Shown here piece after piece: positions 999 through 20,000 of a DNA stretch of 20,000 nucleotides (within the stretch, counting starts at the first letter, position 1; each line of letters begins with the position of its first letter). The notes under the pieces are model-generated. The model saw nothing but the letters and a program-made list of their open reading frames with translations. It searched no databases and was not told where the DNA came from. The stretch spans positions 9,911,791 through 9,931,790 of the forward strand of contig NC_057719.1 in the NCBI RefSeq assembly GCF_004010195.1, written 5' to 3'. The DNA comes from Chiloscyllium plagiosum (lineage: Eukaryota). A program made the position numbers and the translations under genes.

Positions 999-1396
999 GG
1001 TGAACTAGGAACAAATTAAGCACCTGTGCATTTTTCAACAGGCTAAAGATGCGATACAAATGATGGCAGTTATTCATTTATCAAGACAAAAGGCAGAGTT
1101 GGATAAATTCTGGATAAGCTAGGGTGTGAAAAGTTATTGGTATAGGCGTGGGTATGCAGTAATCAAATTACCAGTGATCTTGGTAAATAGCATGGATTCA
1201 AGGGACCAAATGGATGACTCCTGCTCGGAATTACAAATAGATAAGGACCGCTGTCAATGTTACATTTCACAAAAGTGGCATTCATTCAACAGCTGCACAG
1301 TAATGTTATTATAACCAATTTGAAAGGGAAACAAAGAGGTTTCTCTAGATTTTATTCAGATGGCCTGATGTGGCAGTTTAAAAGCTTCTAATCAAC

Positions 1397-1497
1397 CTTC
1401 TCAGAGATGTTATTACATACATCTAGAGATCAGTGGGCACATGAACCCAACCTTCCTGCTCCAGAGGTAGAGACATTACTACTATGCCACAAGAGCC
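1397..1497 (-). mobile_element. tRNA-derived SINE head fragment
   Basis: Minus strand has an A-box-like tggcatagtag and a B-box-like ggttcatgtgccc with tRNA spacing. No intact cloverleaf. Confidence 0.55.
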
Positions 1498-1590
1498 CAT
1501 GATTTGGAGACACCTGGGTTGGACTGGGGTGTACAAAGTTAAAAAAAATCACACAACACCAGGTTATAGTCCAACGGGTTCATTTGGAAG

Positions 1591-1625
1591 CACTAGCTTT
1601 CAGAGCGCTGCTCCTTCATCAGATG
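1591..1625 (-). ncRNA. Minimal type I hammerhead ribozyme motif (family C, left arm)
   Basis: CAU-CUGAUGA-A-GGAGC(AGC)GCUCU-GAAA-GCUA-GUG. Core intact, helix III palindrome AGCU, CUA triplet, G-U pairs at two positions. Confidence 0.85.
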
Positions 1626-1636
1626 GTTGTGACAAT

Positions 1637-1671
1637 CACCTGACGAAGGAGCGGCGCTCCAAAAGCTAGTG
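1637..1671 (+). ncRNA. Minimal hammerhead motif with a core mutation (family C, right arm)
   Basis: CAC-CUGACGA-A-GGAGC(GGC)GCUCC-AAAA-GCUA-GUG. Stems are perfect, but GAAA is mutated to AAAA. Confidence 0.75.
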
Positions 1672-1797
1672 CTTCCAAATGAACCCATTGGACTATAACC
1701 TGGTGTTGTGTCATTTTTAACAAGAGCCCATGTTGAGGTTAACACTCCATTCACCAGCTTCAGCTGACACTGTGTGGACTACTGTAATTCATATAAA

Positions 1798-6054: not shown

Positions 6055-7008
6055 GTCAGTCATAGAGTCATAGAGATGTACAGCATGGAAACAGACCCTT
6101 CAGTCCAACATGTCCATGCCGATCAGATATCCCAACCCAATCTAGTCCCACCTGCCAGCACCCAGCACATATCCCTCCAAACCTTTCCTATTCATATACT
6201 CATCCAAATGCCTTTTAAATGTTGCAATTGTACCAGCCTCCACCACTTCCTCTGGCAGCTCATTCCATACCTGTACCACCCTCTGTGTGAAAAAGTTGCC
6301 CCTTAGGTCTCTTTTATATCTTTCCCCTCTCACCCTAAACCTATGCCCTCTAGTTCTGGACTCCCCCATCCCAGGGAAAAGACTTTGTCTATTTACCCTA
6401 TCCATGCTCCTCATAATTTTATAAACCTCTATAAGGTCACCCCTCAGCCTCCAATGCTCCAGGAAAAACAGCCCCAGCCTGTTCAGCCTCTCCCCATAGT
6501 TCAAATCCTCCAACCCTGGCAACATCCTTGTAAATCTTTTCCGAACCCTTTCAAGTTTCTCAACATCTTTCTGATAGGAAGGAGACCAGAACTGCACACA
6601 ATATTCCAACAGTGGCCTAACCAATGTCCTGTATGGCCGCAACATGACCTCCCAACTCATGTACTCAATACTCTGACTAATAAAAGAAAGCATACCAAAC
6701 GCCTTCTTCACTATCCTACCTACCTGTGACTCCACTTTCAAAGACCTGTTAACCTGCACGCCAAGATCTCTTTGTTCAGCAACACTCTATAGGCAAAAGT
6801 GAGGACTGCAGATGCTGGAAACCACAGTTTAGATCATTATGTTGCTGGAAAAGCACAGCAGGTCAGGCAGCATCCGAGGAGCAGGATAATCGACGTTCCG
6901 GGCAAAAGCCCGATTCCTGATGAAGGGCTTTTGCCCAAAATGTCGATTTTCCTGCTCCTCAGATGCAATCAACACTCTATAGGACCTTACCATTAAGTGT
7001 ATAAGTAC
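6055..7008 (-). mobile_element. CR1/HER1-type LINE, 5'-truncated and relatively young, interrupted at 6794-6969
   Basis: Open 205-aa ORF (6142-6759) with LVRPLLEYCVQFWSP, RLRGDLIEVYKI, RTRGH and FFTQRVVQVWNELP motifs. (CTCTATGA)n 3' tail near 6060-6075. Confidence 0.95.
6794..6969. mobile_element. Palindromic hammerhead mini-element (family B)
   Basis: Perfect 14-bp TSD CAACACTCTATAGG (6780-6793 and 6970-6983). Inverted arms at about 6870-6911 and 6925-6966. Plus strand reads CUGAUGA(6917-6923)-A-GGGC(UUUU)GCCC-AAAA-UGUC-GA. Confidence 0.9.
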
Positions 7009-9735: not shown

Positions 9736-10297
9736 ATAATAATTAATTCTACAGAATGTTTTAACTTGCAACATATCTACCCTGCCACAAGATGGCAAAC
9801 TTGACCAGCTTGAAACTGAGAAGGTCAATATGATATTTTGTATTGTTGTCAAGTATACTCTCATTTTGAAAACAATATTGAAGCAACAAAGTGGAAAGTG
9901 AACAATCTTGAAGACACCATAATTCTTGTTCTGGCTGAATAGAAGGACAAAATGTCAGACTGAGCCCCAGTGAGATCTGACTCAACATTTTTTTTTCGCT
10001 GCATCGTTCCTTCAGCTGTTTATTTTTCTCCTTTCAATGATGTGGCTATTCAGCAGTGATCCTCAGACAAGGCACCAAAAACTATCAAACAATATGATTG
10101 AACTTGAATAAAGAAATCCTAATTATGGATCACCTTGATAACTGGAGATTGTAACACTGCAACTACTAGCCCATGAAATTAGAGTCACCGAGTCCGACAG
10201 GACAGAGACAGGCCCTTTGGCCCCAACTGGTCCATGCTGACCAAAATGTCCATTCACACTAACCCCACTTCCCTGCACTTGGCCCATATCCTTCTAA

Positions 10298-10469
10298 GAC
10301 GAGAGTGGGGCACTGGAAAAGCACAGCAGGTTAGGCAGCATCCGAGGAGCAGGAAAATCGACGTTTTGGGCAAAAGCCCTTCAGCTCCTCGGATGCTGCC
10401 TGACCTGTTGTGCTTTTCCAGCACCACACTCTCGACTCTGATCTCCAGCATCTGCAGTCCTCACTTTCT
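10298..10469. mobile_element. Palindromic mini-element family B with the centre deleted
   Basis: Perfect 14-bp TSD CCATATCCTTCTAA (10284-10297 and 10470-10483). Inverted arms at about 10300-10350 and 10384-10434. Hammerhead stem II and ACGUC remain, but the CUGAUGA box is truncated. Confidence 0.9.
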
Positions 10470-11510: not shown

Positions 11511-11552
11511 ACCTGAGGTCGTCGATTTGTTTGCCGAGCTTATGCATTTTTC

Positions 11553-11594
11553 TGCAGACATTTCATCACCTTACTAGGTGACATCGTCAGTGCA
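11553..11594 (-). ncRNA. Minimal type I hammerhead ribozyme motif (family D, left arm)
   Basis: UGCA-CUGACGA-U-GUCACC(UAGUAA)GGUGAU-GAAA-UGUC-UGCA. Core intact, 4-bp stem I. Confidence 0.85.
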
Positions 11595-11679
11595 TCTTTG
11601 ATAAGATGTTGGTGGTCTGGCCTCCCCAGTATCACGTGTCTCTGTTTGTCGGTACTTCCCGTTCTGTGTCTGCGTGGTT

Positions 11680-11839
11680 TTATATGGTTTTGAGTTCAGT
11701 GGGTTCATCGATTGAGTTTGAGTTGGAATGCCAGGCTTCAAGGAATTGTCTGGTGTGTCTCTGTGTTGCCTGTACTAGGATTGGTTACATTGTCCCAGTT
11801 GAATCCGTGTCCTTTGTTGTCTATGTGGTTGGAAATGAG
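11680..11839 (-). pseudogene. Penelope-type GIY-YIG endonuclease C-terminal remnant (frameshifted)
   Basis: Manual translation gives LISNHIDNKGHGFNWDNVT, a 1-nt insertion, then ILVQATQRHTRQFLEAWHSNSNSIDEPTELKTI. This matches the H...GH.F.W....IL......R.FLEAWHS...SIN pattern of Penelope/Poseidon ORFs. Confidence 0.85.
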
Positions 11840-11871
11840 AATGTACTGGTCCACCAACACGTTATCGAAGA

Positions 11872-11913
11872 TGCACTGATGATGTCACCTAGCGAGGCAA
11901 CAAAACATCTGCA
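11872..11913 (+). ncRNA. Decayed hammerhead motif (family D, right arm)
   Basis: UGCA-CUGAUGA-U-GUCACC(UAGCGA)GGCAAC-AAAA-CAUC-UGCA. GAAA is mutated to AAAA and stem II has mismatches. Confidence 0.7.
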
Positions 11914-12175
11914 GAAAAACACACCAGGTCAACGACTCTATGACCTCATCCACAACCCCAGCTACAAATCCTCTCAAAATCTCCTAAATACTCCAACCTG
12001 TTGACTTTCACTCAATGGGTTTGGTTTTGGGGAAGAAGAATTAATAACAAAGCCTAGTGAAGAAGGCCTTCTTATCTTCTCCAATTGGCTTTTTCACTCA
12101 AGCTGAGTCTGGCTGTGCTCTGACGTCTTTCTGGGTCCACAGAATGATGGAGCGGGGTGGGTGGCCACTCATGGT

Positions 12176-14449: not shown

Positions 14450-15130
14450 TATTCTAGCATTGGAGGCAGTCCAGAGCAGGTTCACTGGGCTGATACCAGG
14501 TATGGAGGGATTGTCTCATGAGGAGATGCTGAGTAGATTGGGCCTGTACCCATTGGAGTGTCTGAAAATGAGAGGTGACTTGGTTGAAACACACAAAGCT
14601 CTTAAAGGATAGTTTCTTCCTCTTGTGAGAGACTTTAGGAAGAGAGGGGCATAATCTCAGAATAATAGATTGTCCATTTAAGACAGAGATGAGGAGGAAT
14701 GTCTTCTCTCAGAGGGGAGTGAATCCAAGGATTCTTTACCACATAGAGCTGTCAAGGCAGGGTCATTATGTATATTCATTATGCATATGAGGTAGACAGA
14801 TTTTTAATCAGTAGGAAAGTTGAGTTGAGGTTGATTAGAGTCAAGAATGTGGTGCTGGACAAGCACAGCAGGTCAAGCAGCATTCAAGGAGCAGGCAAAT
14901 CAACATTTCGGGCATAAACCCTTCATCAGGAATTCCAAAACTTTAATTCTCCTGCTTCTTAGATGCTTCCTGACCTGCTATGCTTTTCCAGCACCACACT
15001 CCCGACTCTGATTTCCAGCATCTGCAGTCCTCACTTTCTCCTCCGTGAGGTTGATCAGATCAGTCATGATCTCATTGAATGGAGGGGCTGACTTGATGGG
15101 CTGAATGGCCTGCTTCTGTTCGTATGTCTC
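14450..15130 (+). mobile_element. Old CR1-type LINE 3' fragment interrupted by family B
   Basis: ALEAVQSRFTGLIPGMEGLSHEEMLSRLGLYPLE..MRGDLVETHK, followed by a 3' UTR. Confidence 0.88.
14836..15045. mobile_element. Palindromic hammerhead mini-element (family B)
   Basis: TSD TGAGGTTGAT (14826-14835 and 15046-15055), extendable to 14 bp with one mismatch. Minus strand at about 14899-14932 reads UUC-CUGAUGA-A-GGGU(UUAU)GCCC-GAAA-UGUU-GA. The right arm lacks the core. Confidence 0.9.
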
Positions 15131-19002: not shown

Positions 19003-19318
19003 TGTTGTGAAGGGATAGGTGTGTACTGTACCTTTAAGAGAGACTGGAAGCTGGCACGGACTTAGAGAGGCACAAAGACTGCTGAACAAATTTAAAATAT
19101 TACATTTGACTGTGAACCCAATAGTGCAGATGAATTGTCATGATACAAAAACAAATTCAAATTCGGCCAGTTTAAATTATGTCCCAGATACCAAAATCCA
19201 ATCAAATTTGATTTTAGCATTTTGACAACATCAAACCAATGAAATGATCCAATATTTTGGGGGTATAAAACCAGATATTTTGAAAAGTTAGGGGAAGAAC
19301 TGCCAAGAAAACCAACAA
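19003..19318 (+). mobile_element. Possible truncated LTR (U3-like)
   Basis: Begins with TGT where the LINE homology breaks. CCAAT at 19118, 19198, 19236 and 19249, TATAAAA at 19264. Cut by a CR1 segment at about 19319. Confidence 0.4.
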
Positions 19319-20000
19319 GTTTGGAGACATGGTTAGAGCAGGGACAGGAATGGTTGTTGCAGGTTCCAGGATTTAGATGTTTTAGTAAGAACAGAGAAGA
19401 TGGTAAAAGAGGGGGAGGCATGGCATTGTTGGTCAAGGACAGTATTACAGTTGCAGAAAGGATATTTGGGGACTCGTCAATTGAGGTAGTATGGGCTGAA
19501 GTTAGAAACAGGAAAGGAGAGGTCACCCTGTTGGGAGTGTTTTATAGGCCTCCGAATAGTTCCAGAGATCTAGAGGAAAGGATAGCAAAGATGATTGTCG
19601 ATAGAAGTGAGAGAGACAGGGTAGTTGTCATGGGGGACTTCAACTTTCCAAATATTGACTGGAAACACTATAGTACGTGTTTTTGTCCAGTGTGTGCAGG
19701 AGGGCTTCCTGACACAGTATGTAGACCAACAGGGGTGAGGCCACATTAGATTTGGTACTGGGTAATGAGCCCAGCCAGGTGTTAGACTTGGACGTAAGTG
19801 AGCAATTTGGTGATCGCGATCACAATTCTGTTATGTTTACTTTAGTGATAGAAAGGGATAGGTGCATACCACTGGGCAAGAGTTACAGCTGGGGGAAAGG
19901 CAATTACGATGCAATTAGGCAAGATTTAGGAAGCATAGGATGGGGAAGGAAACTGCAGGGGATGGGCACATTAGAACTGTGGAGCTAATTCAAGGAAAAG
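19319..20000 (+). mobile_element. CR1-type LINE ORF2 apurinic-like endonuclease region, disrupted, running off the window
   Basis: ETWL, RGGGMALLVK, YRPPN, VVMGDFNFPNIDW, LDLVLGNEP and DHNSV motifs, with deletion or frameshifts near 19675-19750. Confidence 0.95.

Follow-up and report, generated by a model that had tools for sequence, protein, structure and literature searches.

What produced the palindrome at positions 1489-1732, and does the pair of hammerhead ribozyme motifs that it carries, one on each strand, serve any purpose? The locus lies in a window of 20,000 nt of the Chiloscyllium plagiosum contig NC_057719.1; palindrome coordinates are positions in this window, and positions relative to the ribozyme count the first C of CAC as 0. 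A sequence-only reading had described a near-perfect hairpin that might silence itself, act as a folding switch or feed ADAR or Dicer. We hold with high confidence that the palindrome consists of two short, 5'-truncated pseudo-LTR (pLTR) copies of an endonuclease-bearing Penelope-like element (PLE), joined head to head, likely made in one insertion and likely inert now, and that its form would follow from priming within the leader of the element's RNA.

The insert measures 218 bp and is bounded by an exact 13-bp direct repeat, ACAAGAGCCCATG, as the earlier reading had it (Table 1). The last 4 nt of this target duplication (TSD), CATG, are also the end of the tail, and its first 2 nt, AC, the end of an arm; because of this microhomology, by which 6 bp of the 13 overlap the element, 7 bp of the TSD are unambiguous. 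What is left of the duplication belongs to the end of a dispersed repeat of greater age. Two arms of 87 nt each (1544-1630 and 1632-1718) are 91% complementary, with eight mismatches and a spacer of 1 nt, which bears out the description of a hairpin with almost no loop. Folded as RNA, the palindrome reaches -151.1 kcal/mol (z -19.3), equalled by none of 200 shuffles. Each arm begins at -5, a single G separating the two; the left arm (minus strand) extends to +125 and the right arm to about +85. The 36-bp extension that had been called unique is indeed present, at 1502-1537, but it is the tail of the PLE family to which the arms belong.

Table 1. Features of the palindrome and its immediate surroundings, in window coordinates.
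Feature	Positions	Strand	Basis
Older dispersed repeat, with the element inserted into its end	1386..1498	+	107-115 nt alignment at 69-81% identity, with several of 20 paralogous loci picked by pattern for the repeat's end
TSD, left copy; last 4 nt also match the tail end	1489..1501	+	Exact direct repeat
PLE tail; at its end lies the ATG (1500-1498) with which the family's 886-aa ORF starts	1498..1537	-	Family comparison
Left arm: pLTR copy with tail, beginning 5 nt ahead of the ribozyme	1538..1630	-	
Left poly(A)-signal position, mutated to AATGAA	1579..1584	-	
Left minimal type I hammerhead with unaltered core boxes; C11.1U (1602), stem I wobble (1623)	1591..1625	-	Motif as described in the available part of PMC4209133
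Centre G: extra G before A(-5) (likely a copied cap) or the left arm's templated base	1631..1631		
Right arm: pLTR copy without tail, beginning 5 nt ahead of the ribozyme; last 2 nt common to the TSD	1632..1721	+	
Right minimal hammerhead; G12A (1661), U7C (1644); predicted inactive	1637..1671	+	Role of G12 from the available part of PMC6155905
Right poly(A)-signal position, same AATGAA as the left	1678..1683	+	
TSD, right copy	1720..1732	+	Exact direct repeat

The two back-to-back hammerheads, one sense copy per strand, were likewise recovered. Each arm shows the layout CAC, CUGAnGA, A, GGAGC, a 3-nt loop, GCUCC, GAAA, GCUA and GUG, and the window contains two occurrences of the motif where 0.13 would be expected. 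The core boxes, stems I and II and palindromic loop 3 of the minimal type I hammerhead are found in the family and in the left arm, whose stem II contains one wobble; the right arm departs from this description at G12, the general base of hammerhead catalysis according to PMC6155905. An Rfam search at E values up to 1 found no hammerhead, its only matches being weak miRNA ones (mir-875 at E 0.5, far below its cut-off), and single-arm folds were no better than shuffles, as expected of a minimal motif. Each arm is indeed damaged differently (C11.1U on the left, G12A on the right); the lesions are mostly transitions, and both damaging ones fall on the same CpG. They are decay, of the CpG type found in other copies of the family, across which arm-to-arm concordance at CpG-type sites is nil (kappa about 0).

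Searching the organism's own genome with the element returned 5,748 candidates, of which 40 were scored and 30 fetched; all 30 of these best matches are near-full-length palindromes, most with short duplications of their own. The 35-nt ribozyme has 1,563 exact matches and a 38-mer taken from the arm has 21,758, against 0 for reversed controls, and the element is 7.9% diverged from a consensus built on these 30 loci. Many family copies extend upstream into a common 3' UTR, and one copy, L049, continues into a cysteine linker and an endonuclease-like frame. Walking outward along family copies yielded a 3.5-kb consensus with a single 886-aa ORF starting at the tail-end ATG and encoding a reverse transcriptase (RT) that contains YIDD, then a CX4CxxC linker and a domain of GIY-YIG type whose boxes are separated by two cysteines among other residues. 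One ORF thus combines RT with, at the C terminus, a GIY-YIG endonuclease that has CCHH, the endonuclease being assigned by eye from motifs in L049 and the consensus. A natural copy (L085) matches Pfam RVT_1 at E 2e-10, while Pfam gave no GIY-YIG match on the endonuclease fragments and a PDB sequence search no solved-structure match for the family. Five copies (L096, L100, L270, L285 and L287) carry 3' UTR, pLTR and tail immediately ahead of the ORF, the partial tandem of a pseudo-LTR element. The window arms match both consensus pLTRs at 88-89%, and the window copy has an inverted 5'-truncated copy and a 30-40 nt tail at one end. By its predicted protein, the parent is an endonuclease-bearing Penelope-like retrotransposon, of Neptune or Nematis type according to the linker description in PMC8557442, which defines this pair of clades by a CX2-5CxxC linker between RT and endonuclease.

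Further copies and other repeats came to light. About 7 kb before the window, L092 carries another one-tailed palindrome of the same PLE family at 1918-2168, and at L121, L134 and L261-L262 nested or repeated palindromes occur, with family copies inserted into or beside other copies. Within the window, three further head-to-head hairpins (10297-10437, 14834-15012 and 6870-6966) belong to a second family of repeats, whose hammerhead-like motif is related to the one above and which is likely another PLE; this second hairpin family makes up most of the listing in one sample behind the junction variability reported below. A third family, at 27-303 and 11536-11930, forms inverted head-to-head pairs with longer spacers and CTGAAGA or CTGACGA core boxes. 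The open frames at 6142-6786 (minus strand) and 19243-19749 (plus strand) resemble fragments of CR1-type LINEs, and no host exon was identified in the window from its mechanical ORF list.

How the family inserts was read from samples anchored on exact patterns, in which young copies on contigs C1-C3 are over-represented. Ninety loci selected on an exact 38-mer resolved into 89 distinct events, comprising 48 head-to-head pairs and 41 single copies. Eight pairs were unclassifiable; among the other 40, one tail was present in 38 and none in 2, and no pair had two (p 7e-10 against one half). In a second sample of 90 loci, anchored on the tail, 4 lacked the anchor, 15 continued into the ORF, 28 had no partner and 43 had one. 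These partners were without tail in 39 cases, with tail in 2 and unclear in 2, that is, 39 of the 41 classifiable partners were tail-less. An inverted arm is also frequent in long endonuclease-bearing copies. TSDs of 10-16 bp flank 32 of 38 pairs, and TSD and element overlap by a mean of 1.8 nt per end against 0.37 by chance, a difference that the TSD search itself may inflate.

The 5' ends of the arms are far from evenly spread. Pooling 38 one-tailed pairs, the 41 singles and the tail-anchored sample gave 231 ends, 127 of which fall at -10 to +15 and 4 at -36 to -11, with peaks at -5 and 0; a sharp wall thus stands 5-10 nt ahead of the ribozyme. Where the templated C before A(-5) is missing, G occupies its place in 67 of the first 100 matches listed, by hand count, compared with 31 of 100 before A(-3). 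Among fetched loci (30 each, less long copies with point changes, 6 and 3 respectively), G precedes A(-5) in 22 of 24 and A(-3) in 11 of 27 (p 1.5e-4). The extra G of palindromes could derive from the opposite arm, and support from single copies alone is weaker (8 of 10 against 4 of 12, p 0.04). According to the available parts of the papers concerned, a cap that has been copied leaves an untemplated G in L1 and SVA (PMC4859970), and PLE transcripts start within the pLTR (PMC6765202, PMC2377424). We infer from these ends that capped family RNA starts at A(-5); the RNA reads themselves showed no 5' end directly.

Ribozyme-cut RNA was rejected as the main template, most arms running past the cut site. 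A small second cluster of arm 5' ends at +29 to +35, near the predicted cut site (12 ends against 6 and 1 in the flanking bins, p 0.007, post hoc), could reflect rare copying of cleaved RNA. Hammerhead cleavage is described as dispensable for insertion in vitro in PMC11167929.

At its other end, family RNA appears to stop early. A poly(A) signal occupies +41 to +46 in 188 of 208 family arms (ATTAAA in 153, AATAAA in 35), the two common hexamers being swapped by a subfamily A/T difference. One poly(A) RNA run, of which about 2 in 100 was read, placed 513 reads on 1300-1630, 421 of them only 90-95% alike; a second run (X22) placed none. Family reads end in poly(A) at 1564 (76 reads) and 1567 (61 reads), that is, at +61 and +58, 12-15 nt past the ATTAAA/AATAAA site; they may derive from host genes using PLE-derived poly(A) sites. 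The family's poly(A) site precedes both sites at which the arms place the start of reverse transcription.

These observations suggest the following course of events. A protein of the element would make a staggered cut about 10-14 bp wide, and each DNA end would prime reverse transcription inside the RNA leader, helped by 1-4 nt of microhomology, at one of two sites, the tail end (+125) and about +85 to +90. Synthesis of both cDNAs would proceed to the capped 5' end of the RNA, at A(-5), and run off it; one of the two would likely copy the cap as an extra G, and end-joining would then unite the cDNA 3' ends. The palindrome would be a by-product of priming geometry, made anew at each insertion. 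Two arms that halt at the -5 wall would be expected to give just the junction type of the window copy. Because the poly(A) site precedes both RT start sites, the reads suggest that an RNA of unit length could be primed in its 5' leader alone.

Agreement between the arms raises another possibility. In 76 one-tailed pairs, including 30 query-biased loci, the arms are concordant at subfamily sites (kappa 0.6-0.8); in 44 unbiased pairs, rare variants are common to both arms in 7 cases (permutation mean 1.6, p 0.0005), and the window copy has two such variants in both arms. Fold-back self-priming, in which one cDNA (or the antisense template described in the available part of PMC3846280) loops back and copies itself into a second arm, would produce this likeness. 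We nonetheless find it unlikely. In 20 of 38 pairs it is the tail-less arm that extends further 5', and there it could not have been copied from the tailed arm, which does so in 10 of 38 and contains sequence absent from its partner; because either arm can reach further 5', neither was copied from the other. Subfamily alleles also differ between the two arms in some pairs, in 6 of 70 at site 42 and in 8 of 43 at an indel, and shared variants are expected as well from one donor RNA or later gene conversion. The concordance is compatible with double priming on a single donor or a single active subfamily, with mixing of templates, or conversion, now and then.

Priming of the leader at two sites has also to be weighed against amplification of the whole palindrome as a non-autonomous unit, SINE- or retrozyme-like, transcribed and re-inserted entire by PLE proteins. 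This would account for 29 other loci, many of them sharing its centre, that match nearly all of the 218 bp at 86-89%, and for 103 exact matches to the junction type of the window copy. Yet the centres and junctions of palindromes vary widely in unbiased samples, and among 30 loci with the window copy's junction the tail lies on the right in 16 and on the left in 10 (4 unscored), both subfamily haplotypes being present, which a single master would not give; a shared junction is in any case expected where both arms end at the -5 wall. With junctions that vary and a tail on either side, a fixed unit, whether retrozyme or palindromic SINE, is a more doubtful explanation than fold-back.

The functional reading of the hairpin fares worst. 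A read-through transcript would, as had been predicted, form long dsRNA, of about 87 bp, and a few reads in the one poly(A) run come from other palindromic family copies (4 opposite-strand joints). Under forced folding, however, the ribozyme lies 50-53 kcal/mol above the hairpin on either strand, a gap that makes a folding switch implausible. In the available part of PMC4209133, minimal PLE hammerheads have no activity as monomers and low activity as dimers and need a same-sense partner, so the antisense twin cannot serve as the ribozyme's dimer partner. Self-silencing as a function is not supported either, the geometry being the family's commonest insertion form and the lesions decay. The reads carry family alleles at the private sites of the window copy, in nearly all cases, with a depth of 0-2 on the unique flank, and A>G sites at the locus are also present in DNA contigs; in this one poly(A) run we found no read evidence for expression or editing of the window copy. 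A selected regulatory RNA, whether a switch with a sequestering antisense arm or a substrate for ADAR or Dicer, is therefore very improbable given this energy gap, the G12A and C11.1U lesions with CpG-type decay like that of other copies, and the near-empty unique flank; sequestration of the ribozyme would occur on read-through, but nothing points to selection for it.

As to age, in two runs of a second organism (B) a 147-nt contig, differing at 4 places, spans the join of flank and tail, and the insertion, being common to both, predates the split from organism B. No empty orthologous site was found in the two organisms compared, organism B having the insertion and the contig of organism C stopping at 1415, ahead of the site.

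Part of this picture is already in print, as far as the available parts of the cited papers go: the inverted pLTR, the one-sided tail, the TSD and the minimal hammerheads. The first three together are published PLE architecture (PMC3846280, PMC8557442). Pen2a of Adineta and the endonuclease-positive PLE units of the same papers share with the present family a head-to-head inverted 5'-truncated copy, a one-ended tail of 30-40 nt that runs into the ORF start and a TSD near 10 bp; here, in contrast, both copies are only about 90-130 nt long, and this minimal form accounts for about half of the sampled insertions. The minimal hammerheads of PLE pLTRs in PMC4209133 have the same CUGAnGA, extra base before stem II, G10.1-C11.1 pair, GAAA and palindromic AGCU in place of stem III. 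That paper also describes dual hammerhead motifs on opposite strands in Schistosoma, 100-700 bp apart, whereas those of the palindrome are about 12 nt apart and predicted from sequence.

The closest mechanistic counterpart is Poseidon_Ac (PAc) of Anolis, for which PMC11167929, in the part available, reports in vitro nicking and extension of both target strands and two RT start sites that bound the tail, and predicts a dimer. Two internal start sites bounding the tail, cutting and extension of both strands and an uncleaved RNA template are what we propose here as well. Unlike PAc, this family has the CX4CxxC linker of the Neptune or Nematis type, and its ATG lies at the end of the tail and not inside the ribozyme. 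Priming without target homology was reported for PAc, whereas short microhomology is seen here at both ends (mean 1.8 nt, possibly inflated). Twin priming of L1 (PMC4859970) likewise uses two primers per insertion, leading to inversion, and leaves an extra G at full-length 5' ends; in the PLE family both arms duplicate the same stretch, and priming would take place near the RNA 5' end, not at a poly(A) tail. Among titles and the opening parts of abstracts, a scope outside which most subscription papers fall, we found no account of PLEs in terms of twin priming, strong-stop products or a cap-derived G. The same literature contained no description of a shark PLE hammerhead, which may nevertheless have been described before, Repbase and Dfam entries lying outside this scope. 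Nor did it mention the rule of one tail per pair, the G that resembles a copied cap or the model of leader priming, all of which may also have precedents.

A broader view of the replication cycle can be offered tentatively, and we rate it as possible, though on balance doubtful. PLE replication would be retrovirus-like but target-primed: RNA capped from -5 and polyadenylated about 60 nt past the ribozyme would serve as template, and each cut strand would make a 'strong-stop' cDNA from a different fixed site in the leader. A jump to the 3' repeat would then give long copies and partial tandems, while end-joining without a jump would give palindromes. If this is true, the thousands of palindromes in the genome would preserve the PLE replication cycle as a fossil map.

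The single copy in the window matters little in itself; it is the family's copies that bear on the way in which the inverted repeats and the one-sided tail of PLEs arise. The near-strict one-tail rule, the sharp 5' wall with its extra G and the use of a poly(A) site upstream of the RT starts yield predictions that an in vitro PLE system and cap mapping could test. Present in thousands, hairpins of this kind could also give rise to dsRNA in the Chiloscyllium plagiosum genome.
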